Below, in pieces: positions 47,373-64,000 of a stretch of 64,000 nt of DNA; position 1 is the stretch's first letter; every line of letters starts with the position of its first letter. Source of the DNA: Myxococcales bacterium (GTDB lineage: Bacteria > Myxococcota_A > UBA9042 > JABWCM01 > BTVJ01); NCBI GenBank assembly GCA_045863395.1, contig BTVJ01000021.1, forward strand, positions 35,446 to 99,445, given 5' to 3'. The translations under genes were made by a program, and so were the position numbers. The notes beneath the pieces were generated by a model. That model saw nothing but the letters and a program-made list of their open reading frames with translations. It was not told the DNA's origin and ran no database searches.

Positions 47373-47867
47373 ATGCGCATCGCGACCCTCATCGGCGGCG
47401 TGCTCCTGGCAGGCTGTGTGGTGGTGCTCGGCAGCGTGCTTGCCGGGGCCGCGGGGCCCGTGACCCTGGTTGCGCTGGCGCCCCTCGGGATAGGGGCCAC
47501 CGTCGCGCTCCTCATCCGTCGCGGGCTCGCGCGCCAGGATCGCCAGGCCGAGCGGGTCCGCGAGCTGCCGACGCGCGGCGTGCGGCGACGAGGGCGCGTC
47601 GTGGACGCCGTCCCCCATGCCAGCCCGCACGGGGGACCCGTCATCCATCTCGGGGGCGTCCTCGTCCTGCTGCGGGTGGAGCTCAGGGCGGAGGGGGAGC
47701 TCCCTCAGAGGAGCGTGTCCGTCCTGGTGACAGAGCCCACGGAGGCGGCGCGGGCGCGAATTGGGACAGACGTCGTCGTCCTCGAGCACCCCGAGGACCC
47801 GGACATCCGCACGCTGGACGGGTGGCTCCCGAACGGCGTGCGCGGCGGCGGTCGGGGACTTCCCTAG
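47373..47867 (+). CDS. Hypothetical membrane protein (2 TM plus small beta domain)
   Basis: AGGAG RBS; two hydrophobic helices. Confidence 0.65.
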   Translation: MRIATLIGGVLLAGCVVVLGSVLAGAAGPVTLVALAPLGIGATVALLIRRGLARQDRQAERVRELPTRGVRRRGRVVDAVPHASPHGGPVIHLGGVLVLLRVELRAEGELPQRSVSVLVTEPTEAARARIGTDVVVLEHPEDPDIRTLDGWLPNGVRGGGRGLP

Positions 47868-50800
47868 CCGGCCGGCCCGGCTGGCGCCCCGAGCAGCTCT
47901 CTCCAAGCGCGCACCACCTGCACCCCCGCGGTGTCCCCCTCCCCGTCGGCGGCGGCGCGGGCCCGGACCCGGTCGACGAAGGACGGGAGCCAGACGGAGC
48001 CCAGGGTGGCCGCCGCCGTCGAGCCTGCGGCGATGGACCAGCCGACGGGGCCGAGCGGTGTGCAGCCCAGCGCGCGAGACACACTCGGCACCTGGATGGC
48101 GGCGGCGAGGAGCGCCGCCGAGCCGATGGTGGCCGCGAGGACCTCCTTGCTGCGCCCGGTCTGGAGGGTCTGGGCGAGCTGGGTGCCGACGAGGGATGCG
48201 AGGGCGACCGTGCTCGCGCGCCGCCTCGTGCCCGTGAGCCGCGCGAGGACCCACCCTGCGGTAGCGCCTGCGCCGGTGGTGATCGCGCGTTGGACGATCT
48301 CCCGGTCAAGGGCCTTGCCGAGGGACGCCTCGGGGCCCTCGTGGAGCAGCGCCTCCATCGTCGTAGGCTCGGGGGGCCGCAGGGCGATGGCCATGGCGGG
48401 CGCCACGTCCGTCAGCAGGTTCACGAGCAGGAGCTGGCGCGCGTTGAGCGGCGCCGTGCCGCCGAGCAGCGTGCCGAGGATGGTGAAGCCCATCTCGCCC
48501 AGGTTGCCGCCGACGAGGATGGCGACCGCGTCCCGCACCGACGTCCACATGGCGCGGCCCTCGACGATGGCGTCGACCAGGGTCTCGATGCGGTCGTCCG
48601 TGACCACCACGTCGGCCGCGCCGCGGGCCGCGGGGGTGCTGCGGCGCCCGAGCGCGATGCCCACGTCCGCCAGGCGGATGGCCGCCGCGTCGTTGGCGCC
48701 GTCCCCCGTCATGGCGACGACCCGCTTCGCCTGCTGGAGCGCCCGCACGATGCGCACCTTCTGCGCCGGCGTGGTGCGGGCGAAGGCCGCCGTGTGGGGG
48801 GCGACCGCGGCGAGGGCCTCGTCGCTCATGCGCTCCAGCTCGGCGCCGGTGACGATGCCGCGGCCGTCCAGGATGCCGAGCTCCGCGGCGATGGCCTCCG
48901 CCGTGCTCGGGTGGTCCCCCGTGATCATGATGACGTCGACGCCCGCCCTCCGAACCCCGTCGACGGCCGCCGCCGCCGACGGGCGCACCGGGTCCGCGAA
49001 GGCGACGAAGCCGCGGAAGGTGAGGCTGGTCACCGTGTCGTCCGCGAGCGGCCCCTCGAAGGGGCCCTCCGCGATGGCCAGCAGGCGGAGGCCCCGGCGC
49101 GCGAGCTGGCTGGCGCGCCGGGTCAGCTCCGAGCGGGCGCCGGCGTCCAGGGGGCGCTGCCCGGCGGGGTGGGCCCACGACTCACAGCGCGGCAGGACCA
49201 CCTCGGGAGCGCCCTTGAGGCTCAGGACCCCACCCTGAGACAACACCGCGTGGAAGCCCCGGTCCGGCTCGAAAGGGAGCTCGCTCGCCAGCGCCCATCC
49301 CGGGGCGCCCTCCTCACGTCGCACGGCGGCCGCCTCGGCAGCCGACGACAGGGCCCGGTCGGCGGCGTGGAGCGGGGCGCCGTCCGGGCGCCCGTCGGGG
49401 CACGCGCGCAGCGCGGTCGCGAGCACGGCGCGAGTCATGGCGCCTGGCGAGTCGCCCACCGGCTCCTCGGAGACCCCGTCGGTGACCATGCGCAGCGCGA
49501 TGCGCCCCTCGGTGACGGTGCCCGTCTTGTCGACGCAGACCACGTCCACGCGCCCGAGGGCCTCGATGGCGCGGGGATTCCGCACCAGGGCCCCCCGCTC
49601 CGACAGGCGGCGGGCGGCGGCGAGCTGGGCGGCGGTGGCGATGATCGGGAGCCCTTCGGGGACGGCGGCCACGGCCAGGCTCACCGCGGAGCCGATCATC
49701 TTGGCCAGGGACTGCCCGCGCAGGAGGCCCGCGCCGACGACGGCCGCGCCCCCAAAAGCGACGGCGGGGGCGGTCAGCTCCATGAGCTCCTCGAGGCGCG
49801 CCTCGACCCCGCTGTGGGGGAGCGTACCCCGGGCCGCGGCCATGCCACGGCGCGCCTCGGTGCCCTCGCCGGTGGCGACCACCACGGCCACGGCGTGGCC
49901 AGACGCAACGGACGTGCCCTCGTAGATCATGGACGCGCGCTCGCCGACCTCGTCACCGTAGGTCGGGGCCGACGACTTTGCGACAGGCACGGACTCGCCG
50001 GTCAGGGTCGACTCGTCCACCTGGAGACCCCAGCCGCGCATCACGCGACAGTCGGCGGGCACCACGTCGCCGGCGCGGACCGTGACGATGTCGCCGGCCA
50101 CGAGGCGGTCCGCCGGGACCGTCGTGTCCTCGCCGCCTCGGCGCACCCGGGCGGTGCTGCGCTCCCGCTGCCCGAGGGCCTCGATGGAGCGCTCCGTGTC
50201 GTAGCGCTGGATGCCACCAAGCAGCGCATTGACGCCCATGACCCCCGCGACGAGGCCCGCGTCGGCCAGGGAGCCCACCACGGCGGAGAGGCCCGCGCCC
50301 GCGGCCAGCAGCGGTGCGAGGGGATTGAGCAGCTCGTCCGCGACGGCCCGCCCGAGGCGCGCCACCTCGGGCAGCGGGTTCGCCCGTGGTGGGCGGCGGC
50401 GGACCGCCTCGCGCCGCGTCAGGCCGGCGGGGGTGGTGCGGAGGCGCGCGAGGACGCCGTCGACGTCCAGGGCGTGCCAGGGCGTCGGGTCGCGGAGGGG
50501 AGCGGGCGGTCGCCAGTCCAGGGCGGCGGCGAGGCGACCGCCGTTGGCCATGGCGACCACCGTCGCCACGTTGACCACGTTCATGACCTTGCGCCCGGTC
50601 TCGGGCCGCAGCCCGCCCGCCGAGATGAACGCGCCGAGGGACGCGGACGCCAGCGCGATGTGGGTGCTCTGCTTGGAGGCGTCCCGCGCCACGGCCATGG
50701 ACTCGAAGACGTAGCGGAGGAGGCCCAGGTCCTCAGGGCACATGAGGTGTGCGCCCCAGGGCGTCTTCCCCTCGCGCACGAGGCCGATGCCGACGTCCGC

Positions 50801-52354
50801 CGCCCGCAGCGCCGGCCCGGGCCCACTCGCGACCAGGGCGACCACGGCCCCCTCCTGCTGGAGGGCGGCGACGGAGGCTGCGAGGCGGCGGCCGCCTGGA
50901 ACCACCTCGTCCGCGTCGAAGCGCTCCAGGTCGGCGGGGCGATCCGTGGCGACCAGGACGCGCAGGCCGGCGTCGTGGGCGGACCGGATCAGGGCCTCGA
51001 CGTCGGTCTGCGGGGAGACCCGCACCTCGATGATCGCCGCCAGCGCGTCCCGGCGCGTGAGGCCCAGGACCAGGGCGCCGCGGCTCGCGAGCTCCCTCCG
51101 CCGGGCCTCCAGACCGCCCGCGCTCTGCACTCCGAGGAGCGGAAGCGGGCCGAGCGCCCACCCCCGCGCGCGGTGGACGGTCGTGGGGCTCGACGGATCG
51201 AGCAGCGACCGGGCGACCCGGCGGCTCTCCGCTGCGTCGACCGTGCGCTCGTGGACCACCTCGCCGATGGAGAAGCTGGCCCTCGCGACGAGATCCGCCT
51301 GCAGGACGACGGTGTCCACGCGGTCGAAGTGGCGCAGCACCCGGCTGTCCATGGGGACGACGCCTCGGAGCGCCAGGGCGCGGCCGAGCTGGGCCGCGAA
51401 GGCCTCCCGGCCGAGCCGCGCCGGCTTTGGCATGCACCCGATCATGGGCGCGAAGGCCCGGTGGAGGCTGCCCGTCGTAGCGACTCCCACCCCGAAGGCG
51501 CCGAGGGACGCGTACCACGCGCGCTCCGCGTACTTCTCGACTGGGCCCTTGGGGAGCGGGATCGGGCGGTCCGGGAAGGGCCGGTCCGCGGAGAAGCCCG
51601 CCTTGGCGCGGCACAGCTCGGGCTCCCGCCGGTCCCAGACCCGGCGGCGCGCCTGGATCTCCCGCACCAGCAGCGCCCGGTACACGATGTCCGCCCCAAG
51701 ACTCGTCGCCCCCTGGCTCAGGCCCTGGGTCACGGACGAGAGCACGTTGAGCATCAGCTCCGTCGTGAGCGGCCCGAGGCGGTCGTCGAGCTTCTGACGC
51801 AGGGACGGCGCGCTGTCCAGCACGGAGAGGATGGTGGCGGCGTCGGTCTGGAACGGCAGTGGCGGGACGCGGGCCATGCGCAGGATGGCCGCGAGCACGA
51901 GCCCACCCGCGTCCGTGCCCATCTCGACCAGGGTGCGCGCCAGCGGCTCCACGTCCGCCGGGTGCTCGGGCTTCTCGTCGCCGAAGGGCGCGAGCCCCGC
52001 GTCCGCGGCCTCCTCCGCCCGTTGCACCGCGGCGACCAGGTCATCGAGGCTCACCTGCCGCTCGTCGTAGGCCACGATCACGCGGCGGGTGTAGGGGTTG
52101 AGCTCCGCCCACGCCACCCCGGGCACCGCCTCCACGGTCCGCTCGACGGCCCGCCCCAGCTCGGGCAAGCGATTGGCCTCGACGCGGCGCACCTCCACGT
52201 GGGCGCGCCCATCGGCCCCCCAAGCCCGCCGCGTCCGGTGCCCGACGATCTTCAGCGCAGGCCCGACCACGGAGGCGACAGCAGCGCCTACAGCCGGCAC
52301 CACCTTCTCCAGCAGCGGCTTCACGAGAGGTTGCAGGGTCTTCCCAAACGGCAT
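47864..52354 (-). CDS. Large cation-translocating P-type ATPase (CtpH/CtpI-like)
   Basis: DESTLTGES, AVPEGL, DKTGT, KGAPE, MITGD, GDGAND, NLLTD; about 650-aa N-terminal extension with HMA-like and degenerate HAD-like parts. Confidence 0.92.
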   Translation of the reverse strand: MPFGKTLQPLVKPLLEKVVPAVGAAVASVVGPALKIVGHRTRRAWGADGRAHVEVRRVEANRLPELGRAVERTVEAVPGVAWAELNPYTRRVIVAYDERQVSLDDLVAAVQRAEEAADAGLAPFGDEKPEHPADVEPLARTLVEMGTDAGGLVLAAILRMARVPPLPFQTDAATILSVLDSAPSLRQKLDDRLGPLTTELMLNVLSSVTQGLSQGATSLGADIVYRALLVREIQARRRVWDRREPELCRAKAGFSADRPFPDRPIPLPKGPVEKYAERAWYASLGAFGVGVATTGSLHRAFAPMIGCMPKPARLGREAFAAQLGRALALRGVVPMDSRVLRHFDRVDTVVLQADLVARASFSIGEVVHERTVDAAESRRVARSLLDPSSPTTVHRARGWALGPLPLLGVQSAGGLEARRRELASRGALVLGLTRRDALAAIIEVRVSPQTDVEALIRSAHDAGLRVLVATDRPADLERFDADEVVPGGRRLAASVAALQQEGAVVALVASGPGPALRAADVGIGLVREGKTPWGAHLMCPEDLGLLRYVFESMAVARDASKQSTHIALASASLGAFISAGGLRPETGRKVMNVVNVATVVAMANGGRLAAALDWRPPAPLRDPTPWHALDVDGVLARLRTTPAGLTRREAVRRRPPRANPLPEVARLGRAVADELLNPLAPLLAAGAGLSAVVGSLADAGLVAGVMGVNALLGGIQRYDTERSIEALGQRERSTARVRRGGEDTTVPADRLVAGDIVTVRAGDVVPADCRVMRGWGLQVDESTLTGESVPVAKSSAPTYGDEVGERASMIYEGTSVASGHAVAVVVATGEGTEARRGMAAARGTLPHSGVEARLEELMELTAPAVAFGGAAVVGAGLLRGQSLAKMIGSAVSLAVAAVPEGLPIIATAAQLAAARRLSERGALVRNPRAIEALGRVDVVCVDKTGTVTEGRIALRMVTDGVSEEPVGDSPGAMTRAVLATALRACPDGRPDGAPLHAADRALSSAAEAAAVRREEGAPGWALASELPFEPDRGFHAVLSQGGVLSLKGAPEVVLPRCESWAHPAGQRPLDAGARSELTRRASQLARRGLRLLAIAEGPFEGPLADDTVTSLTFRGFVAFADPVRPSAAAAVDGVRRAGVDVIMITGDHPSTAEAIAAELGILDGRGIVTGAELERMSDEALAAVAPHTAAFARTTPAQKVRIVRALQQAKRVVAMTGDGANDAAAIRLADVGIALGRRSTPAARGAADVVVTDDRIETLVDAIVEGRAMWTSVRDAVAILVGGNLGEMGFTILGTLLGGTAPLNARQLLLVNLLTDVAPAMAIALRPPEPTTMEALLHEGPEASLGKALDREIVQRAITTGAGATAGWVLARLTGTRRRASTVALASLVGTQLAQTLQTGRSKEVLAATIGSAALLAAAIQVPSVSRALGCTPLGPVGWSIAAGSTAAATLGSVWLPSFVDRVRARAAADGEGDTAGVQVVRAWRELLGAPAGPAG

Positions 52355-52367
52355 GAGCACCCCCTGG

Positions 52368-52395
52368 GGGGTCAAGTATACTCAGTTCTCATATC
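52368..52395 (+). repeat. 28-bp dispersed element, copy 3
   Basis: GGGGTCAAGTATACTCAGTTCTCATATC. Confidence 0.85.
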
Positions 52396-52508: not shown

Positions 52509-55310
52509 CTACCCCGAACAGCCCGGGATCTGCTGGTGCGTGCAACCGACCACGGGATCGCAGGCGTCCAACGTACACGGGTCGCCGTCGGCGCAGTCCA
52601 CAAGGCGCCCAACGCAGCGCCCGAGCTTGCAGCCGTCGGCCCACGTACACGCATCGCCGTCGTCGCAGCCTCCAAAGTTCGGAGCGTAGGTGCATCCGCG
52701 ACGCCCGTCGCACGCCTCCGAGGTGCACGGGTTGCCATCCGCGCAGCTCAGCGGGGCGCCCGACAGACACGCGCCGCCAGCGCAGAGGTCCCCCGCCGTG
52801 CATGCGTCGCCGTCGGAGCACGGGACTGCGTTGAAGGTGTGCAAGCAGCCGAGGCCCGGCTCGCAGACGTCGTCGGTGCAGCGGTTTCCGTCGCTGCACG
52901 AGACCTTGACCCCCTTGCACACGCCGGCCACGCACCGATCGCTCTTGGTGCACGGATCGTCGTCGTCGCAGACGCCGACGGCGAGCTTGCAAGCAGCGCT
53001 GCAACACTGGGACGACCCCGGGTCGCACTGCTCGCCCGGGTCCAGCACGCCATCTCCGCATGCCGCGCTGAACGTAGCAGTGAGGGTGGTCTCCATCTCC
53101 GGTCCCACGATGCTGTGGCTGGCGGCCCCGCCGTCGGACCACGCGACGAACTTCCACGCCACGCCACCCAGCACCTGGAGGCCCTCGACCCCCACGGAGG
53201 AGACGGACCCCACGATGACCTCGCGCTCGAATGGTGCCACCTCTGAGGTCCCGCCTACGGCGATGGAGAGCCCCGGCGGGACGGACTCGAACCCGATGGT
53301 GACCGTCCTCGGGTGGATCTCGATGCTCGCCGAGTCCGTCAGCCCCGCCGAGTCCGTGACCGTCAGAACCAGCGTCAGGAACGAGGGGAACTCGTGGTCC
53401 GGCGCAACGAAGCTCCCGCCCGACACCCCCTCGAACTCCTGCAGCGGGTGCTGGTGGCACGCGTCGGGACAGTGCTCCTGGACGAGGGCCCAGCGGAAGG
53501 CCGCGGGCGGCAGGTCTCCATCTTGTGCGTCAGTGGCAGCGCCCTCGAACGGGACCTCGTCCCCCACCGCGAACGTCACTCCCACATCGGGGGCCAGGAT
53601 GGCGGCAACGGGTGGGGTGTCATCGACGGTGATGTCCACGCTCGCGACACCGCTGTCGCCGGCCACGTCGGTCACCTGGAGCGACACCGGGTAGACGCCG
53701 GCCGTGCCATAGACCCACAGCGGGGCCACCTGCGTCGAGTCACCGAAGACGCCGTCGCCGTCCAGGTCCCAGCTGAATGAGAGCACATCCGCCGGGTTTG
53801 CGTCCGTGGAGCCCGATCCGTCGAAGGACACCGCGAGCGGCGCGACTCCAGACGTCGCGCTGGCGTCGATCTTGGCCACGGGAGGCACGTTCTCCGCGAA
53901 GTACCTGATGCGGCGGATGGCCCCCCCAAGGAAGTCCGCGTAGAAGAGGTCGCCCCCCGGCCCCACCTTCAGCTCCACGAGGGGCAGACCGGACGCGAAC
54001 GTGGCCCGCTGCGATGGGTCCGGCTCGCCGTCCGGGCCCGGGAACATGGTCCAGATACACTTCCGCGAGTAGTCGCTGAAGAACAGGGCGCCCTTGTAGG
54101 CGGCCGGCCACGTCCCGCCCTGGTAGAACGCCACGTTTCCCACCGCGGACCCGCTCCCCCCCGCGCCGCACGGGTCCCCGGGGAGCGCGGCCTGCTTGTG
54201 CGCATAGGCGAAGGTCGGAGGAGTGACAGCGCCAGGGACGTCATAGAGGGACTGACACATGGACAGCCCCGCCGCGGCGTACCCGCTCTGCTTGCCGGCG
54301 CCCTCGTAACAGGGCCAGCCGAAGTTCTCCACGACCGCGTCGCCTGCGTCATCGACGACGTTGAGCTCCTCCCACGAGCTCCAGCCCACGTCGCCAATCC
54401 AGATCTGCGAGGTCCCTGGACGGAAGGCGAAGCGGAACGGGTTTCGGAGCCCGAACGCGATGATGCGGTCATCCCCAGCAGCAGCCCCGCCCACCAGCGG
54501 GTTGTCGGGCAGCGCGCCCCCGGTGGCGGGATCGACGCGCAGGATGGCCCCGTCCAGGCTCACCGGGTCGGCGGGCGTGAGGACGTCCTGCGCTCGGAGC
54601 GCGCCCCCCTCGGCGCTCGGTGGCGTCATCGTGCCCCCGACCCCGGCCGGAGGGTCCCCGCACGGGTTCTTGGGGTTGCCCGCCTGGCCGTAGTCCACGA
54701 AGTTGAAGCTCGCCCCGTCCCCAGCGCTCAGGTAGAGGGCTCCGTCCGGCCCGAAGGCGACCGTCCCGATGGAGTGGCTCGGGTACTGCTGGCACCAGTC
54801 GGTGATCAGGACCGTCTCCTGGCCGTCCCAGGAGTCCCCGTCCGCCGTCAGCCGCGACAGCCGCCCCTGGACGACGCACCCATCGGCGGTCGCGCCGGGC
54901 GGCGTCGGGCACCCATCGGTGGTCTCGCCCGCCTTGCCCCAGGTCGGCGCCACGCCCCCCGGCGGAGCGTCATAGGTGTAGAGCACGAAGACGTGCGGAA
55001 CGGCCGGAAACGACGGGTGCAGGGCGAGGCCGAGCAGGCCGCGGTCCCAGAAGTTGTGGACCTGGGTGCGCAGGTCTGCAAAGACTGTGGCGCTCCCATC
55101 GCCGAGCCCGTCGAACACCTTGATGATGCCGCTCTTCTCGGCGACGAAGACCCGCCCGTCGGCGGCAAAGGCGAAAGTCGTGGGGTGAACCAGGCCGCCC
55201 AGCGCCTCCGTGTCCTGGAAGCCTTCGGGCAGGGCGTTGGCCTGCTGGGGGAGCGTCAGGAGGGCGAAGAGGGCAACGGCGCAGCGCGCCAGGGAGGCGG
55301 TGGTGCTCAT
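52509..55310 (-). CDS. PQQ-dependent sugar dehydrogenase (GSDH propeller) with PKD domain and Cys-rich repeats
   Basis: Signal peptide; DRGLLGLALHP, FGPDGALYLSAGDG, GLRNPFR, NFGWP; PKD SWDLDGDG; CDDGDxCT repeats. Confidence 0.88.
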   Translation of the reverse strand: MSTTASLARCAVALFALLTLPQQANALPEGFQDTEALGGLVHPTTFAFAADGRVFVAEKSGIIKVFDGLGDGSATVFADLRTQVHNFWDRGLLGLALHPSFPAVPHVFVLYTYDAPPGGVAPTWGKAGETTDGCPTPPGATADGCVVQGRLSRLTADGDSWDGQETVLITDWCQQYPSHSIGTVAFGPDGALYLSAGDGASFNFVDYGQAGNPKNPCGDPPAGVGGTMTPPSAEGGALRAQDVLTPADPVSLDGAILRVDPATGGALPDNPLVGGAAAGDDRIIAFGLRNPFRFAFRPGTSQIWIGDVGWSSWEELNVVDDAGDAVVENFGWPCYEGAGKQSGYAAAGLSMCQSLYDVPGAVTPPTFAYAHKQAALPGDPCGAGGSGSAVGNVAFYQGGTWPAAYKGALFFSDYSRKCIWTMFPGPDGEPDPSQRATFASGLPLVELKVGPGGDLFYADFLGGAIRRIRYFAENVPPVAKIDASATSGVAPLAVSFDGSGSTDANPADVLSFSWDLDGDGVFGDSTQVAPLWVYGTAGVYPVSLQVTDVAGDSGVASVDITVDDTPPVAAILAPDVGVTFAVGDEVPFEGAATDAQDGDLPPAAFRWALVQEHCPDACHQHPLQEFEGVSGGSFVAPDHEFPSFLTLVLTVTDSAGLTDSASIEIHPRTVTIGFESVPPGLSIAVGGTSEVAPFEREVIVGSVSSVGVEGLQVLGGVAWKFVAWSDGGAASHSIVGPEMETTLTATFSAACGDGVLDPGEQCDPGSSQCCSAACKLAVGVCDDDDPCTKSDRCVAGVCKGVKVSCSDGNRCTDDVCEPGLGCLHTFNAVPCSDGDACTAGDLCAGGACLSGAPLSCADGNPCTSEACDGRRGCTYAPNFGGCDDGDACTWADGCKLGRCVGRLVDCADGDPCTLDACDPVVGCTHQQIPGCSG

Positions 55311-55394
55311 GGGTCTCCTCGGGTGCGGGACGATGGGAACACGCTAGCCCGCTGGCGCGCGGTGACAAGCGGACCGGCGGTGGGGTGGCCGTCG

Positions 55395-56156
55395 TCAGCC
55401 CCGCGTGCGCACCCCCTCGGGCACCGCGCCAGCGTGGCCCTGGCCCACGCGCATCCGCAAGCACGCCTCCGGCTGGTCGGTGATGACGCCGCTCACGTTC
55501 GCGAGCGCCCACGCCATGATCTCCGGCTCGTTGACGGTCCACGCGAGGACCGGCAGCCCCAGCCGGCGCATTCGGGCGACGAAGCCGAAGCGGACCAGCC
55601 GGTGGTGGGGGGAGACGAAGTCGGCGCCGCAGCGGCGGGTGCGCACCTCGGGGAAGAGCTCCGTCATGCGCGTCAGGGGGCCGAGCCGAGGGCTCCCCAC
55701 GCCGAGGAGCAGGCCGACCGTGCGCCCCGGGGCGAGGTCCTTCAGGCGGCGCACCACCTCATCCTTGAAGCATTTGAAGATCACGGGATCCAGGCCGGCG
55801 ACCGTGCGGACCAGGCGCTCCTCGAAGCCCTCCGCCTTGATCTCCAGGTCCAGGCCGACGCGCCCCCCCGCGATGTCCACCAGCTCGGAGAGCAGCGCTG
55901 GCGCCGGGATCCCGGCGGCGCGAGAGGCGGCGACCAGCGCATCGAGGCGCGACGCTGCGACCGGCAGCCCCGCGTGGTCCGGGTCATGGAGGCACACGAT
56001 GTGGCCGTCGGCCGTCTCCCGCAGGTCCACCTCGATGAAGTCCACGCCCAGGCGCACGGCGCGCTCGAAGTGCGCCACCGTCTGCTCGCCGGGGAGGTCC
56101 GCGTAGTGCCCGCCGCGGTGGGCGATGACGAGCGGCCGCGAGGGGAACGGCATCAT
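55395..56156 (-). CDS. Glycerophosphodiester phosphodiesterase (GDPD)
   Basis: IAHRG, IEVDL, LHD, LEIK, WTVN, VITD; ATGA overlap with the upstream gene. Confidence 0.88.
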   Translation of the reverse strand: MMPFPSRPLVIAHRGGHYADLPGEQTVAHFERAVRLGVDFIEVDLRETADGHIVCLHDPDHAGLPVAASRLDALVAASRAAGIPAPALLSELVDIAGGRVGLDLEIKAEGFEERLVRTVAGLDPVIFKCFKDEVVRRLKDLAPGRTVGLLLGVGSPRLGPLTRMTELFPEVRTRRCGADFVSPHHRLVRFGFVARMRRLGLPVLAWTVNEPEIMAWALANVSGVITDQPEACLRMRVGQGHAGAVPEGVRTRG

Positions 56157-58105
56157 GGCAGGGCCTCCCGGTCGAAGCGCTCGATGCGAATCCGGTCCGT
56201 GGACACCCCAGCAGCGCCGAGCCACGCCTCCACGGCGCGCATGTACCCCTCGGAGCCGCACAGGGTGTAGACGGCCGTCGGGAGGCGCCGCACCCACGCG
56301 TGGACCTCCGAGGCCTGCAGGCGCCCCTCCCGGCTCGTCACCCGCCGGCGCAGCGTCAGGTTGGGCGGTGTGGCCGACGCCAGCTCCGCGAGGATCGCCG
56401 CGTCCCGCTCGGAGCGGATCGACCAGTCGATGACCAGCCGGTTGGGCCACCCCTCGCGCAGCAGCGTCCGCGCGAAGGCCAGGGCGGGCGTCACGCCGAT
56501 GCCGCTCACGAAGCACACCAGCGGCGCCGGACCCGGCTCCCAGGTGCAGGTCCCCACCGGCGTCGACGCCTCCACACGGACGCCCGGGCGAGCCTCGTCG
56601 AACAGCCACGAAGAGAACGCGCCACCGGGCTCGCGCTTGACGGTGATCTCCCAGGGCCCCCCCGCAGCGCCCGAGAGGGTGTAGGGGCGGTCCAGGTTGC
56701 GGCCTGGCACCCGCACCACCACGTGCTGCCCCGGCCGCGCAGGCGGCACCTCGCCGTCGGGAGCGAGGTCCACCCGCCGCACGTCGGGGGTCAGCTCCAC
56801 GATGCGCCCGAGGGCCACCGGCAGGAACGCGGTCTGCCCGAGGAGCTCCACCACCGCAGGGACGCACGAGCCGCACGACATACCGCAGCCCGTCCTCTCC
56901 TGAATGGACTGGAGATCCGCGTGGCCGCTCCGGATCGCCGCCTGCACCGTGGAGCGCGTGACCCGCAGGCACGCGCACAGCGTGGCGTCGGCCTCCCGGG
57001 CCAGCTCCCCCGTGGCCGCAAGCGCGGCCTCCTCCGCGGCCGTGAGCGCCTCCCCCCCGATGGCGCGGCCGAAGAGCGCCGCCAGGACCGGCTGGGCAGC
57101 GCGGGCCTCCACGGCCCAGACCCGGCCGTCCGCCTCGACGCCGACGCGCACCTGGCCGTCCGGCGAGGAGATCCACCGCGCCGCCTCCCCACCCGACGCC
57201 TGGAGCCGCACCAGCTCCTCGCCGATGACGTGGGTGGACACCACGCTGCGCCCCCCGCGCAGGTGGAACATCTGCGTCACGCAGGGGCGGCCGTCCAGGT
57301 CCCCCGCGTATTGGGTCACGTAGCCCCTCTGGGGCAGCTCCCACACCCGCTGGAGGGTGGCCAGGTGGTGGCGCAGCTCCGAGGAGCTGGCCGCGCGGTG
57401 GGCGAGCTCCTCGGGCGGAACCTCAAGCAGCCTGGCGGTTCCGTCGACGACGGCCGTGGCAGCCCGCACCCGCTCGTCGCGCTCCCCCGCGCAGAGGCCC
57501 GGGCCCACGCGGGCTACGCGGACGGGGCCGTCCCGCTCGACGAACAGCTCCACGTGCCCTGAGAGCACCACGTAGACCGGCCCCGCGGGGTCGCCCTCCC
57601 GGTAGAGCACCTGCCCGTTACGCCAGGTGCGCTCGCGCATGCCGACTGCGGTGCCTGCGACCAGCTCGCGTACCAGGCTCGTGCGGCGCGCCAGGCGCTC
57701 CTCCCGCTGCCGCTCCCCCAGGCTCCGCAGGCCGTCCTCCAGCTCCGGGTTGCTGCGCAGGGAGGCGGCCAGGTGCTCGCGCCCGAGGCGCGCCACCGTG
57801 GAGACGGGCGCCACCCCGCGGACGCTGGCGCTGCGCCGGCCGCCCTCGTCGAGCAGCGCCTGCTCGCCGAAGTGCTGGCCTGGGTAGAGGTGCGACAGGA
57901 CGACGCCCTGCCCGCCCGCGTGGGTGAACACCTGCAGCGAGCCCGAGAGCAGCACGTAGAAGGCGTCTGCTGGGTCTCCCTCCCGCACGAGCAGCTCGCC
58001 GTCGCGGACCTCCAAGGTCGCGGCCTGGCTCGCGAGCTCGATGAAGGCCGTGTCGCTGAGCGCCGAGAAGAGCCCGGAGCGGAGCAGCGCGAAGGTGGGG
58101 TCCAT
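56153..58105 (-). CDS. Fusion: two cyclic-nucleotide-binding domains, BFD-like [2Fe-2S], FAD/NAD(P)-binding ferredoxin reductase
   Basis: EGD..FYVLLSG..FGEQALL..RSA; second EGD..YVVLSG..GE..RAA; CAC..GCGMSCGSC; RPYTLS, GGAFS, GIGVTP, CGS, terminal ERF. Confidence 0.88.
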   Translation of the reverse strand: MDPTFALLRSGLFSALSDTAFIELASQAATLEVRDGELLVREGDPADAFYVLLSGSLQVFTHAGGQGVVLSHLYPGQHFGEQALLDEGGRRSASVRGVAPVSTVARLGREHLAASLRSNPELEDGLRSLGERQREERLARRTSLVRELVAGTAVGMRERTWRNGQVLYREGDPAGPVYVVLSGHVELFVERDGPVRVARVGPGLCAGERDERVRAATAVVDGTARLLEVPPEELAHRAASSSELRHHLATLQRVWELPQRGYVTQYAGDLDGRPCVTQMFHLRGGRSVVSTHVIGEELVRLQASGGEAARWISSPDGQVRVGVEADGRVWAVEARAAQPVLAALFGRAIGGEALTAAEEAALAATGELAREADATLCACLRVTRSTVQAAIRSGHADLQSIQERTGCGMSCGSCVPAVVELLGQTAFLPVALGRIVELTPDVRRVDLAPDGEVPPARPGQHVVVRVPGRNLDRPYTLSGAAGGPWEITVKREPGGAFSSWLFDEARPGVRVEASTPVGTCTWEPGPAPLVCFVSGIGVTPALAFARTLLREGWPNRLVIDWSIRSERDAAILAELASATPPNLTLRRRVTSREGRLQASEVHAWVRRLPTAVYTLCGSEGYMRAVEAWLGAAGVSTDRIRIERFDREALP

Positions 58106-58107
58106 GG

Positions 58108-59445
58108 TCAGGCCCTCGCTGGCAGGCGCGAGAGACTGGCGAGCACGCCGTCCCGTGAGCGCAGCACGAAGTTCCCCTCCAGGGTGAGGTCCCGGGACAC
58201 GGGGATGGCGCGGAACCGCCGGAGGAACGCCACCAGCAGCGCCTTCACCTCCAGGAGCGCGATCCGCGACCCGATGCAGCGCCGCTGCCCGACGCCGAAG
58301 GGGACGAAGGCGTACCGGTGGCGGCGCTCCACGGCCTCGGGCAGGAAGTGGTCGGGGTCGAACACGTCTGGCCGCTCCCAGAAGGCCGGGTGCCTGTGGG
58401 CGCGCCAGATGCTGGCGAAGGCCATCGTCCCCTGCGGCACACGGTGGCCGAGCAGCGCCGTGTCCCGCCGGGCGATGCGCAACAGGAACCACACCGGCGG
58501 ATAGAAGCGCATGGATTCGTTGATGATTCTATCCAACAGAGGGAGCGCGTCGAGGTCCGCGAGCGGCACGTCGCGCCCCGCCGCCTCGACCTCGGCCCGG
58601 AGGGCGGCCTCCCACGCCGGGTGGTGCCCGAGCAGCCACACCGTGTAGGCGAAGGTGTTGGGCGGGTTGTCGGCGGACGCGATCAGCATGAGGCGCAGGT
58701 GGCCGCGCAGCGCCTCGCGGTCGACCTGGTGATCCTGCCGGATGCGCTCGAGGAAGGACGGCGGCTCTCCGGGCGGTGCGGGGGTGGCGAGCCCCCGGTC
58801 GATGATCCCGTCCAGGAACGCGAGGTCCTGCTCCACCTGCCGTGTGCGGGGCTGGCCGCCCGCGACCGCCCGGAAGGCCCACCGCTGGAGGCGCTGGACC
58901 ACCTCGGGGAACCGGTGGGCCTCGTCCGGGCGGAGCGACAGCCCGAAGCTGCGCGGGGCGAGCAGCGCGAACAGGCGCGTCGACTCCAGCGCCAGATCCA
59001 CGGCCCCGCCGTCTGCGAGGCGCCCCCAGCCATCGAGCTCGACCTCGGCGTCCCGGGCAAAGGAGGCGGCGGCCCGCGCGGCCATCTTCTGGTGGAACGA
59101 GGGCTGGGCAAGCTGCCGGTTGGCGGCCCACTCATCGCCGATGGTGGTCAGGACGTTCTTCCCGAGCAGCGCCGCGAGACCCGTGGACTTCTCCCAGTCG
59201 TCGGGCGAGTCCAGCAGCGCGGCGACGCCGTCGGGGTGGCCGGTCAGGCATGTCCGCCGGTAGAGCAGGTCCAGGCGGACGAGATCGCCCTGCTCGGCGG
59301 CCCGCAGCGTCTCGAAGGTGCGCTCGCGGAACCCGACGAGGCTCCCGAGCAGCGGCTGCCCCGAGACGGCCGGGATCGACGCGTCGAAGGACCCTCGCTG
59401 GCGGAGGGAGGACCGGAGGGCGTGGATGTGTTCGCGCAGGTCCAA
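58108..59445 (-). CDS. Cytochrome P450
   Basis: ESMR (ExxR), FDPDHF, FGVGQRRCIG heme thiolate; TTG start inferred after GAGAGG, so the start is uncertain. Confidence 0.92.
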   Translation of the reverse strand: MDLREHIHALRSSLRQRGSFDASIPAVSGQPLLGSLVGFRERTFETLRAAEQGDLVRLDLLYRRTCLTGHPDGVAALLDSPDDWEKSTGLAALLGKNVLTTIGDEWAANRQLAQPSFHQKMAARAAASFARDAEVELDGWGRLADGGAVDLALESTRLFALLAPRSFGLSLRPDEAHRFPEVVQRLQRWAFRAVAGGQPRTRQVEQDLAFLDGIIDRGLATPAPPGEPPSFLERIRQDHQVDREALRGHLRLMLIASADNPPNTFAYTVWLLGHHPAWEAALRAEVEAAGRDVPLADLDALPLLDRIINESMRFYPPVWFLLRIARRDTALLGHRVPQGTMAFASIWRAHRHPAFWERPDVFDPDHFLPEAVERRHRYAFVPFGVGQRRCIGSRIALLEVKALLVAFLRRFRAIPVSRDLTLEGNFVLRSRDGVLASLSRLPARA

Positions 59446-59630
59446 GGCGCCTCTCGCCGGGTTGGAGGGTGACGGGTGCGAACTTGATAGCCGCAGCACA
59501 CCGGGTGCGTCAAGCAGGCGGGGGTCCCGGGAGCCTTCGCCCCGTAACGCGCTGGCCCTGGGCTCCCCATCACGGTATGACTTGCCGTGAGTGTGGGGCA
59601 AGCACATGGGACGTGAGCGAGGACACCGCC

Positions 59631-61535
59631 ATGAGACTGAGCCATTGGACCGCAGCGCTCACGGCGCTGGCCCTCGCCGCGTGCGGGGCGCAGGACGGCG
59701 CGGGCCCCGCCGCGGTGCCCGACGCAGCGATCAGAGACGGGAGCCCCGCGGGAGCGGACTCGGTAGCGACCGATGGCGGCGCCGACACCGCGGTCGAGCA
59801 GGCGGACGCTGATACCGCGGCCGAGCACGGGGATGCGGACGCCGGAGGCCCCTCGGACATCACGGACGCTGGCGACGATACCAGTGACGAGGACACGGGA
59901 CCCGACGCGTTCGAGCCACACCCCGACTGCGTCCACCTCTACGGGGGCACGTGGCTCCTCCCGGGGCCGTGCGAGCCCGGGTACGACGCGGACCTGGCGG
60001 CGAAGGCGCGCCGGCATGACCGTGTCTGGCGAGCGTTCAATGCCGCAGCCATGGGAGTGAACACGGACGTCGCGGTGGCGGGGCCCGAGGATCGGGCGAC
60101 CGTGGAGGCCTTCGCCACGTCAGGCGGTTGGGACTTCGAGGCATTCGCGGGCGCGGGAGCACTCTCGCTGATCACGAGGCAGGACAAGGTCGCGGGGCTG
60201 TATGCGGGCGTGGGGATCGCGGCCGATGCCTTCCGCTACGCCGTGCTCAGGGATCAGGGGCAGGACGCCGAGGAGATCGCGCTGGCGCGGGCGCACTTGC
60301 TGGCGGGCCTGGAGGGGCTGCACCGGGCGGTGGCCATCACGGGCGTCACCGGGGTGATCGCGCGGGGCTATGCGCGCAAGGACCTGCCGGGGAGCGAGGG
60401 CATCCAGACCGTCCCGCTCTTCGACGAGGACGGCCAGCCCCTGCCGCCAGAGAAGAACAACGGGACGTGGCGCGAGCCCGGCGCCCCGGGCCTTGCCGAC
60501 TACGTCTGGGAGGACTCCATCAGCCGCGACCAGATGCTCGGGTGGGTGACGGCCTTCGCCGCGGCCTGGGAGGCGATCCGTGACGACGCCACCATCCCTG
60601 CGGAGGTCAGGGACCGCCTGCGCGACGACGCCCTGCACATCGGACGCGAGCTGATGGTGGTCAGGGAGAGCGGCTACGACCTGGAGATCCCAGACGCAGA
60701 CGGCCGCACCACCCTGCATGGCTACCTGCACGAGACCAACGTGGAGGGAGTGTACCTGGGCCAGCCCCTCAATGGCTTCCACGCCTTGATGGCGCTCGGC
60801 TTCGCGTCGGCGTGGGTCTACGTCACCGACGACCCGGAGCTGAAGGCATGGCTGCTCGACGACCTCGTGGGCAAGCGCAAGCTCCACGAGCTCGTCAGGA
60901 GCTACGTGGTCCTCGCCTGGGCTGGCAACAAGACCAACTACTCGAACACGAACATGGCCTTCGGGTCCATGTGGCTGGCGCAGCGCTACCTGGACCACGC
61001 GGGGGCGCAGACCACACTCCGAGAGGCCCTGGCGACGAGCATGTACGCCATCCCGGGCGAGCCCGACCAGCCGGAGACCCTCGGCCAGAGCTACTTCGAC
61101 TTCATCTACGCGGCGGGCATGGCGGGGCAGCGCGCGGGCGGCACCTTGAGCGGCGACGTGGACGCAGCCGCCATGGGCCGAGGGCTCGACACGCTCCGGG
61201 CCTTCCCGCAGGCGCCCTACTGGAACGAGGGCGTGGTCAACTGTCCGGCGGCCGTCTGCTCCTGCGAGGAGCCCGCCGTCGCGTCGAGTGCCTGCACCGG
61301 GCTCGACGGCACCCAATTGACCGTGCTCGGCTGCGTGGGGAGGAGCTGCGACCTGATCTGCGACGAGCCCGTCCCCATGGGGATCCGCCCGCCGAGCAAC
61401 TACCACTGGCGGTCCAACCCGTTCCGGCCCAACGGCGAGGGGGACGGGACCACGCTGCTCCCCGGGGTCGACTTCCGCATCGCCTACTGGTCGGCGCGCG
61501 CGGTCAGGCGCTCGGACGCTCAGCCAGCGCCTTGA
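59631..61535 (+). CDS. Hypothetical lipoprotein, helical (possible alpha/alpha toroid) domain
   Basis: GAGGA RBS; lipobox LALAAC; acidic linker; GVIARG, SRDQ, PGVDF..AYW motifs; function unknown. Confidence 0.75.
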   Translation: MRLSHWTAALTALALAACGAQDGAGPAAVPDAAIRDGSPAGADSVATDGGADTAVEQADADTAAEHGDADAGGPSDITDAGDDTSDEDTGPDAFEPHPDCVHLYGGTWLLPGPCEPGYDADLAAKARRHDRVWRAFNAAAMGVNTDVAVAGPEDRATVEAFATSGGWDFEAFAGAGALSLITRQDKVAGLYAGVGIAADAFRYAVLRDQGQDAEEIALARAHLLAGLEGLHRAVAITGVTGVIARGYARKDLPGSEGIQTVPLFDEDGQPLPPEKNNGTWREPGAPGLADYVWEDSISRDQMLGWVTAFAAAWEAIRDDATIPAEVRDRLRDDALHIGRELMVVRESGYDLEIPDADGRTTLHGYLHETNVEGVYLGQPLNGFHALMALGFASAWVYVTDDPELKAWLLDDLVGKRKLHELVRSYVVLAWAGNKTNYSNTNMAFGSMWLAQRYLDHAGAQTTLREALATSMYAIPGEPDQPETLGQSYFDFIYAAGMAGQRAGGTLSGDVDAAAMGRGLDTLRAFPQAPYWNEGVVNCPAAVCSCEEPAVASSACTGLDGTQLTVLGCVGRSCDLICDEPVPMGIRPPSNYHWRSNPFRPNGEGDGTTLLPGVDFRIAYWSARAVRRSDAQPAP

Positions 61536-62921: not shown

Positions 62922-64000
<1,079 letters not shown>

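Follow-up and report, generated by a model that had tools for sequence, protein, structure and literature searches.

How is a bacterial cytochrome P450 supplied with electrons when the adjoining gene encodes a reductase that carries two cyclic nucleotide-binding (CNB) domains? In bacteria, the generally accepted controls on P450 activity are expression and substrate binding. The question is raised by two minus-strand genes in a 64,000-nucleotide stretch of DNA (here, the window) from a Myxococcales bacterium (assembly GCA_045863395.1, contig BTVJ01000021.1, positions 35,446 to 99,445). The first encodes the P450 P0002 (445 amino acids, TTG start, 58108..59445; Pfam PF00067, E = 3e-50), and the second encodes a stand-alone reductase module, P0001 (650 amino acids, 56153..58105), in which CNB-A and CNB-B are followed by a Rubredoxin_C-like domain, a BFD [2Fe-2S] domain, and FAD- and NAD(P)-binding domains. 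The ATG of the module lies at 58105, after a 2-nucleotide gap from the P450 stop at 58108, and the open reading frame coordinates agree with the spacing of two bases to a 650-amino-acid protein given in a first-pass annotation of this DNA.

We incline slightly toward the reading that P0001 is a cyclic nucleotide-switched reductase and the dedicated partner of the P450. Electrons would pass from NAD(P)H to FAD, then to the BFD [2Fe-2S] cluster, and then to the P450 heme. A cyclic nucleotide in the intact CNB-A pocket is predicted to displace the Rubredoxin_C-BFD arm and so to switch electron flow; as to direction and ligand, activation by cAMP or cGMP is a guess.

Domain organization of the reductase module

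Pfam matched P0001 to cNMP_binding twice (E = 1e-30), to Fer2_BFD at residues 376 to 423 (E = 7e-11), and to FAD_binding_6 at residues 436 to 521. The BFD-like [2Fe-2S] domain (Pfam PF04324; 56831..56989, minus strand) has its cysteines at positions 377, 379, 411, and 414, and all four are kept in 228/228 modules. PF00111, the putidaredoxin/plant-type ferredoxin family, was absent from the Pfam matches of P0001, and the cluster domain is a BFD domain with the pattern CxC...CxxC. The FNR-type FAD and NAD(P)H domains (56153..56830, minus strand) carry RxYT at residues 473 to 476. The NAD-binding part had no Pfam match, yet it contains GIGxTP (535 to 540), CG (616 and 617), and a terminal ExF (642 to 644), and residues 427 to 647 of the P0001 model superposed on FNR-family reductases (Z = 26.8; root mean square deviation [rmsd], 2.1; 217 residues aligned). 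All cofactor ligands are conserved across the module family. The earlier description of two CNB domains, a BFD cysteine cluster, and a complete FNR module is thus supported by Pfam, by the motifs, and by the superposition.

The middle domain (residues 256 to 372; 56990..57340, minus strand) resembles, by structure search with the predicted model, the Rubredoxin_C/reductase C-terminal-like fold, with template modeling scores by query of 0.62 to 0.64, which are under the tool's naming bar. This segment had been called unassigned; it has no Pfam match of its own, but it appears assignable to that fold, which lies ahead of BFD in NirB/NasC-type proteins. A Pfam Rubredoxin_C match is present in the relatives P0184 and L020 (one above the cutoff and one below) and not in P0001, and residues 326 to 426 of P0001 also match the BFD-bearing C terminus of molybdopterin nitrate reductase-like proteins. 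A search of a language-model-feature atlas with the middle segment gave no usable match, and searches with the whole model were dominated by CNB and FNR matches.

Association of the module with P450s

Next, we examined how regularly the module accompanies a P450. Of the other loci in the window's clade for which DNA was available (L001, L097, L098, L099, L111, L177, and L178), 7/7 have a P450 immediately upstream of the module, with gaps of −4 to +2 nucleotides; the two are separate genes in all seven, and counting the window, 8/8 loci are coupled. The six complete P450s of these loci are 48 to 65% identical to P0002. Other neighbors of the P450-module pair are not conserved across loci. In a quick tree of the reductase core built from 99 sampled rows, the window's clade (support, 96) and a branch that includes two P450 fusions were sister groups (SH-aLRT, 95); deeper nodes were weak.

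When all 17 stand-alone loci examined are counted, those of the clade included, a P450 lies no more than about 3 kb away in 12 (three of these loci are near-copies of one another). The more distant stand-alone modules L008, L018, L022, L042, and L119 adjoin unrelated P450s, and the four that were aligned are 17 to 20% identical to P0002. Several groups, only 16 to 24% identical to P0002, are represented among the linked and fused P450s; the pairing of the module with P450s therefore arose repeatedly or is old. L047 and L059 lack the FNR part, and there the P450 is joined to the CNB pair, the middle domain, and the BFD domain, which suggests that the Fe-S arm is what the sensor acts on.

The survey for conserved P450 linkage or fusion, run as the first-pass annotation had proposed, thus yielded 26 fusions among 222 modules and adjacency in all seven other clade loci with DNA. 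The proposal of a one-polypeptide P450 redox partner is supported by these fusions and by the dedicated P450 family adjacent to the module in the clade, and from such sequence comparisons we regard donation of electrons by the module to P0002 as very probable. A predicted complex of the P450, module residues 256 to 428, heme, and 2Fe-2S scored 0.01; its controls were also unfolded, and it is evidence neither way. The PF00970 family search of the host genome missed the module gene itself, so it cannot show the absence of other reductases.

Units of CNB, middle, and BFD domains without an FNR part occur at L047:4995-8243, L059:5665-8622, P0059, and L151:3107-6400, with a P450, a PF10118 metal-dependent domain, or unknown domains as the fusion partner. 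The P450 fused to such a unit also has a noncanonical I-helix (AQAPT), and at L059 an FHA-GAF-cyclase gene lies upstream of the unit.

A portable electron donor

The scope of the earlier proposal, a P450 partner, stands for this clade, but it overlooked that the module is a general donor with other acceptors too. A representative search with P0001 gave 296 proteins at E ≤ 1e-30, of which the best 150 were listed. A fusion scan found 57 new proteins of >760 amino acids among the matches listed, leaving out two giant multi-CNB proteins; 11 of them carry a P450, 6 a NOS (nitric oxide synthase) oxygenase, and 4 a multiheme cytochrome c, and one each carries a desaturase, a nitrite/sulfite reductase, and an N-terminal FAD oxidoreductase. 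Once proteins and loci were pooled, the set comprised 262 full modules; de-duplication at 90% left 228, and removal of 6 partial ones left 222. Among these 222, the C-terminal extension is a His-rich membrane domain in 33, NOS in 32, P450 in 26, multiheme in 6, desaturase-like in 3, nitrite/sulfite reductase in 1, and unknown in 2, with none in 119; the labels come from local profiles and clustering, and some of the 119 may be cut contigs. All of the partners that could be identified accept electrons, and the module was therefore identified, from sequence, as a portable, general electron donor (to P450, NOS, membrane and multiheme cytochromes, desaturase, and nitrite/sulfite reductase).

The distribution of the module is patchy. 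It was present in 8/401 genomes of the phylum and was not found in the 40 closest relative genomes at E = 1e-40, so there is no near synteny; tblastn at E = 1e-20 gave no match in a plasmid collection. Named relatives include Myxococcota, Acidobacteriota, Pseudomonadota, and Planctomycetota records, and automatic database names exist for the architecture.

Several relatives have unusual settings. Fusions to a His-rich membrane domain of 3 to 5 helices (L016, L020, L023, L035, L041, and L138) have multiheme cytochrome c and/or Tll0287-like genes downstream, and together these might form a transmembrane electron conduit linked to cyclic nucleoside monophosphates (cNMPs). A Legionella sp. plasmid carries a stand-alone module (L026:4818-10616) whose immediate downstream neighbors are genes for a PrnB-like heme protein and a kynureninase-like protein. 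A second module copy in G296 (L183:4828-9249) lies near a Pyr4-like terpene cyclase gene and an MpaB/Lcp-like heme oxygenase gene. The single fusions P0240, P0137, P0130, and P0213 carry, respectively, a nitrite/sulfite reductase, a fatty acid desaturase, a sulfotransferase plus a P450, and an N-terminal FAD oxidoreductase.

The P450 family

P0002 has the heme-binding motif FGVGQRRCIG (C390; 58270..58299, minus strand), and C390 and the ExxR residues E310 and R313 are invariant in 10/10 family members. The P0002 model (pTM, 0.84) has a P450 fold whose best Foldseek match is CYP184A1 (7wzl; TM score by query, 0.79), which is 26% identical to P0002 in the structural alignment; one CYP184A1 entry contains oleic acid, and the next matches are carotenoid and CYP3A enzymes. 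As a guess, the substrate is lipid-like and hydrogen bonds to N260.

The I-helix of P0002 reads ASADNPPN. Alignment showed that D259-N-P-P-N263 (58657..58671, minus strand) replaces the canonical acid-alcohol (E/D-T) pair: the acid is kept, Asn stands in place of Thr, and DNPPN is invariant in 10/10 family members. The canonical pair is present, with few exceptions, in the fused and unrelated P450s, and the five next-best P450 loci have AGHETT in four cases and no pattern match in one. The two prolines after the Asn are peculiar to the P0002 family among the P450s aligned. The first-pass annotation was right to call a P450, with Pfam, heme motif, ExxR, and fold all normal, but it overlooked the absence of the I-helix threonine. 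A profile of the P0002 family scored >700 bits in 3/401 phylum genomes, with a next best score of 301. Because these three genomes had in part contributed to the profile, what matters is that no other genome scored high; they are the same three that hold the closest modules, adjacent to the P450 each time, and they belong to three different families.

The CNB domains and a proposed swappable sensor slot

CNB-A (residues 1 to 140; 57686..58105, minus strand) is a Pfam cNMP_binding domain whose best solved matches are CNB domains of PKG and PKA-R, with CRP-family domains also among the closest. Its phosphate-binding cassette (F79 to V95; 57821..57871, minus strand) reads FGEQALL-x4-RRSA and includes G80, E81, R91, and A93. 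The canonical contacts to the cyclic phosphate in CRP and PKA domains are G, E, R, and the A that comes next. The G, E, and R of CNB-A are kept in 212/222 relatives and in 33/33 members of the window's clade. Set against a median of 41% for CNB-A columns, E81 is conserved in 98% of the 222 and R91 in 97%, which places both in the top four columns of the domain. Only 1/222 modules lacks G, E, and R in both cassettes. On these residues, nucleotide binding by CNB-A seems likely.

CNB-B (residues 141 to 255; 57341..57685, minus strand) has G207, E208, and R214, and its cassette falls 3 residues short of the usual GE-x8-R. That pattern occurs in 0/33 CNB-B domains of the clade, in which G, E, and R are still visible in 21/33; outside the clade, G, E, and R are present in 171/189 relatives. 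Judged by this alignment, the clade's CNB-B is likely degenerate and probably acts as a relay or structural unit. The intact first cassette and shortened second cassette reported earlier were therefore confirmed. The clade has lost the cassette geometry of CNB-B and has kept CNB-A throughout, which supports gating.

We then compared the module with bacterial NOS proteins that carry EF-hands. A search with an EF-hand NOS gave 112 matches, mostly EF-hand-BFD-FAD-NAD-NOS proteins of cyanobacteria and myxobacteria, and these relatives are 38% identical to the module over 364 residues. A profile of 67/83 EF-type NOS cores matched P0001 at residues 245 to 645 (E = 4e-66) with the same BFD, FAD, NAD order, while an N-terminal profile of EF-type NOS gave no match to P0001. 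That the module core is a scNOS-type reductase had been overlooked by the first-pass annotation. Both the CNB-type and the EF-type proteins join the core at an L-P-x-R-G motif (L257 in P0001; 57314..57337, minus strand), the point where the CNB pair gives way to the EF-hand region in Sorangium-type NOS. scNOS itself shows EF-hands and this motif, its tie to the EF-type set resting on its first 350 residues. The N-terminal position thus looks, from these alignments, like a swappable sensor slot, and the alternation of two second-messenger domains in it is the best indirect argument for regulation.

A family of full-length bacterial NO synthases has two CNB domains in place of the EF-hands of scNOS and makes up the 32 NOS fusions among the 222 modules; examples are P0041, P0043 to P0047, P0049, P0055, L005, L006, L007, L011, L012, L015, and L182. 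The L006 locus has a GAF-GAF-class III cyclase gene immediately upstream, and at L005 the opposite strand carries a globin-FAD (flavohemoglobin-like) gene just downstream. In P0262 to P0344, the EF-hands of Sorangium-type NOS lie inside a larger N-terminal region of 330 to 390 amino acids; in two of these, a precomputed NAD(P)-binding Rossmann match (PF13460) suggests an NmrA-like host domain.

Weighing the switched-partner model

That nucleotide binding affects electron flow is plausible, and by analogy with the EF-hand region in the same slot of Sorangium-type NOS, and because the phosphate-binding residues are conserved, we lean modestly toward it. Several observations weigh against the model as a whole, and we take them here with the explanations that they favor.

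The module could instead be a constitutive P450 reductase in which the CNB pair is structural, serves docking or dimerization, or binds nucleotide without controlling flow. We consider this a doubtful alternative, although the best placed of those that follow. It fits the degenerate CNB-B of the clade and a description of scNOS, in the available part of the source, as catalytically self-sufficient with unknown physiological inputs. Forms that apparently lack the N-terminal sensor (L035, L037, L049, and L142) also fit it, though some may be split genes, as at L034. Inter-domain packing was not predicted either: the AlphaFold model of P0001 (mean pLDDT, 85.9; pTM, 0.57) is confident in its domains but not in their overall packing, and therefore it shows no allosteric path. 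Against a constitutive reductase, the ligand-contacting Glu and Arg are conserved far above background in all partner classes, and the sister family fills the slot with another second-messenger domain.

A second explanation keeps ligand gating but gives CNB-A a ligand other than cAMP or cGMP, such as another cyclic nucleotide, a nucleoside, or a metabolite. The CNB-A cassette is family specific, with Gln after Glu (85%) and Asn, Ser, or Thr after Arg. Its G-to-R spacing is 12 in 156/215 family members and 11 in P0001, and it is usually 1 to 2 residues longer than in PKA-type domains; given this atypical length, the ligand may not be cAMP or cGMP. Nor is there a conserved cyclase neighbor: a cyclase gene is directly upstream of the module gene in only two loci, L006 and L059, and none is present in the window. 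The cassette, however, retains all the canonical contacts to a cyclic phosphate, the closest solved domains fall within the PKG, PKA-R, and CRP families, and class III cyclases are plentiful in the host genome (9 matches). Such cyclases were also found in 3/3 other such genomes checked, and their presence therefore says little. Given these caveats, we regard a different ligand as improbable. The host genome also has class III cyclase and CNB matches within one 956-amino-acid open frame (G000:C27:73961-75004), besides which there are 18 other CNB-like matches.

Concerning the acceptor, 5/17 stand-alone loci have no P450 nearby (three have other heme proteins, namely PrnB-like, MpaB/Lcp-like, and multiheme, and two do not), and with 6 Fer2 matches in the host genome, other [2Fe-2S] proteins could serve the P450. 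P0002 also lacks the catalytic I-helix threonine. CYP74 and prostacyclin synthase-type enzymes have an I-helix Asn and act on peroxide-bearing substrates. It is nevertheless quite unlikely that P0002 acts on such a substrate rather than as an O2-activating monooxygenase, with the module priming or rescuing the heme or serving another acceptor, since, against the Thr-to-Asn exchange with its two prolines and the non-P450 neighbors, P0002 retains the acid residue, a full reductase is strictly coupled to the P450 in the clade, and Asn occupies this position in the working oxidizing P450s P450cin, OxyB, and RufM (available text of PMC13439498 and PMC10465960).

Taken together with the family survey, the switched-partner model extends to a broader one, about which we are evenly divided: cAMP or cGMP on CNB-A would free the BFD arm to reduce a threonine-less P450 family, as part of a plug-in reductase family whose swapped sensors (CNB pair or EF-hands) place oxygenases (P450, NOS, and desaturase) and transmembrane cytochrome chains under second-messenger control, including cNMP-regulated NO synthases.

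Relation to known systems

The available text of PMC3701330 and PMC4436077 describes a 2Fe-2S/FAD/NAD(P)H reductase at the N terminus of scNOS and SiliNOS; scNOS, from Sorangium cellulosum, is also covered by the available part of PMC7400543. Like P0001, scNOS has BFD-like [2Fe-2S], FAD, and NAD(P) domains in one chain, which in scNOS lie N-terminal to a heme-thiolate oxygenase and feed it, and it has the same junction motif after its N-terminal region. It differs in having an EF-hand region and a fused C-terminal NOS oxygenase, whereas P0001 has CNB domains, ends at residue 650, and lies beside a P450. No NOS oxygenase was found in the host genome by tblastn.

The characterized GcoB, which serves a two-component P450 class, is a [2Fe-2S]-FAD-NADH reductase in one chain (available text of PMC6021390). 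In GcoAB, as in our pair, the P450 is a separate protein whose gene accompanies that of a single-chain [2Fe-2S]-FAD-NAD(P)H reductase, and the FNR part of GcoB (PDB 5OGX) aligns with P0001 (E = 2e-11; Z = 24.9; rmsd, 2.6; 227 residues aligned). However, GcoB has a putidaredoxin-like ferredoxin and no sensor, while P0001 has a BFD cluster, a Rubredoxin_C-like domain, and two CNB domains, and GcoA-type P450s and P0002 belong to different families. CYP102 (BM3) and CYP116B (RhF-type) are fusions with the reductase C-terminal to the P450. They resemble our pair in that an FNR-like flavin domain supplies the P450 (6laa, E = 2e-6), but the window pair is unfused, with a stop codon and a 2-nucleotide gap, and fused relatives of the module place the reductase N-terminal to the P450. 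By sequence, the pair would work like a GcoAB-type two-component P450 with a scNOS-type reductase, but on the features tested it belongs to neither class.

In the available text of PMC12922734, Ca2+ controls electron transfer in mammalian NOS, through calmodulin, and in cyanobacterial syNOS, which has a C2 domain. There a second messenger moves an electron-carrying domain toward a heme-thiolate oxygenase, which is a functional model for the proposed switch, but these are diflavin reductases that use Ca2+, and their sensor is not homologous. PKA-R, PKG, and mycobacterial Pat share the CNB fold (in tandem in PKA-R and PKG) and the cassette residues, but their output is a kinase or an acetyltransferase and not an electron transfer chain. 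P450cin, OxyB, and RufM share the I-helix Asn with P0002, but no close sequence relationship to it was found.

In the literature searched, where coverage of subscription journals was thin, we found neither a CNB-bearing reductase of the P450, NOS, or BFD type nor cyclic nucleotide control of electron supply to a bacterial P450. The first-pass annotation knew of no characterized example of this class; that holds in this literature for the CNB-bearing form but not for one-chain P450 reductases, since GcoB had already been characterized. The activator of full-length bacterial NOS is stated to be unknown in the available part of PMC4436077, and the presence of the module on at least 32 NOS oxygenases bears on that question. 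If the model is true, bacteria have a counterpart of the calmodulin control seen in mammalian NOS, including cNMP-regulated NO synthases, and a ligand-switchable P450 reductase would be a useful part for biocatalysis. As a soluble, stand-alone reductase, P0001 can be assayed with cytochrome c alone, so that gating is directly testable. The DNPPN P450 family is itself uncharacterized.

Gene calls and neighboring genes

The TTG start of the P450 has an AGAGG ribosome-binding motif 4 to 5 nucleotides 5′ of it. An alternative start at ATG 59607 was dropped because relatives start at the position of the TTG, which has that motif. Compared with a close strain's contigs, 7/8 differences in the module gene were synonymous. 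Among RNA-library contigs, one from run X1 covers 55097-59458 and another, from X2 of the same study, likewise stops at 59457; both ends fall 12 to 13 nucleotides before the P450 start. These contigs were discounted as evidence of transcription, since each run covers all 30 bins and could contain DNA. A promoter and terminator scan, with a single weak sigma-70-like match within the P450 and no terminator, was set aside as uninformative.

A glycerophosphodiester phosphodiesterase-family gene (Pfam GDPD; 55395..56156, minus strand) overlaps the module stop (ATGA). We rejected it as a part of the system because only 1/7 other clade loci (L097) has it in the same position, and it is probably a local passenger. 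Elsewhere in the window, a 634-amino-acid predicted lipoprotein-like open reading frame (59631-61535, plus strand), with no Pfam match at E = 0.01, is divergent from the P450. A Gly-rich, Cys-repeat surface protein (62922-64000, minus strand) has a Cys-containing, sorting signal-like C-terminal tail, which may resemble MYXO-CTERM. A P-type cation ATPase of 1503 amino acids (47864-52375, minus strand) has a long N-terminal extension.

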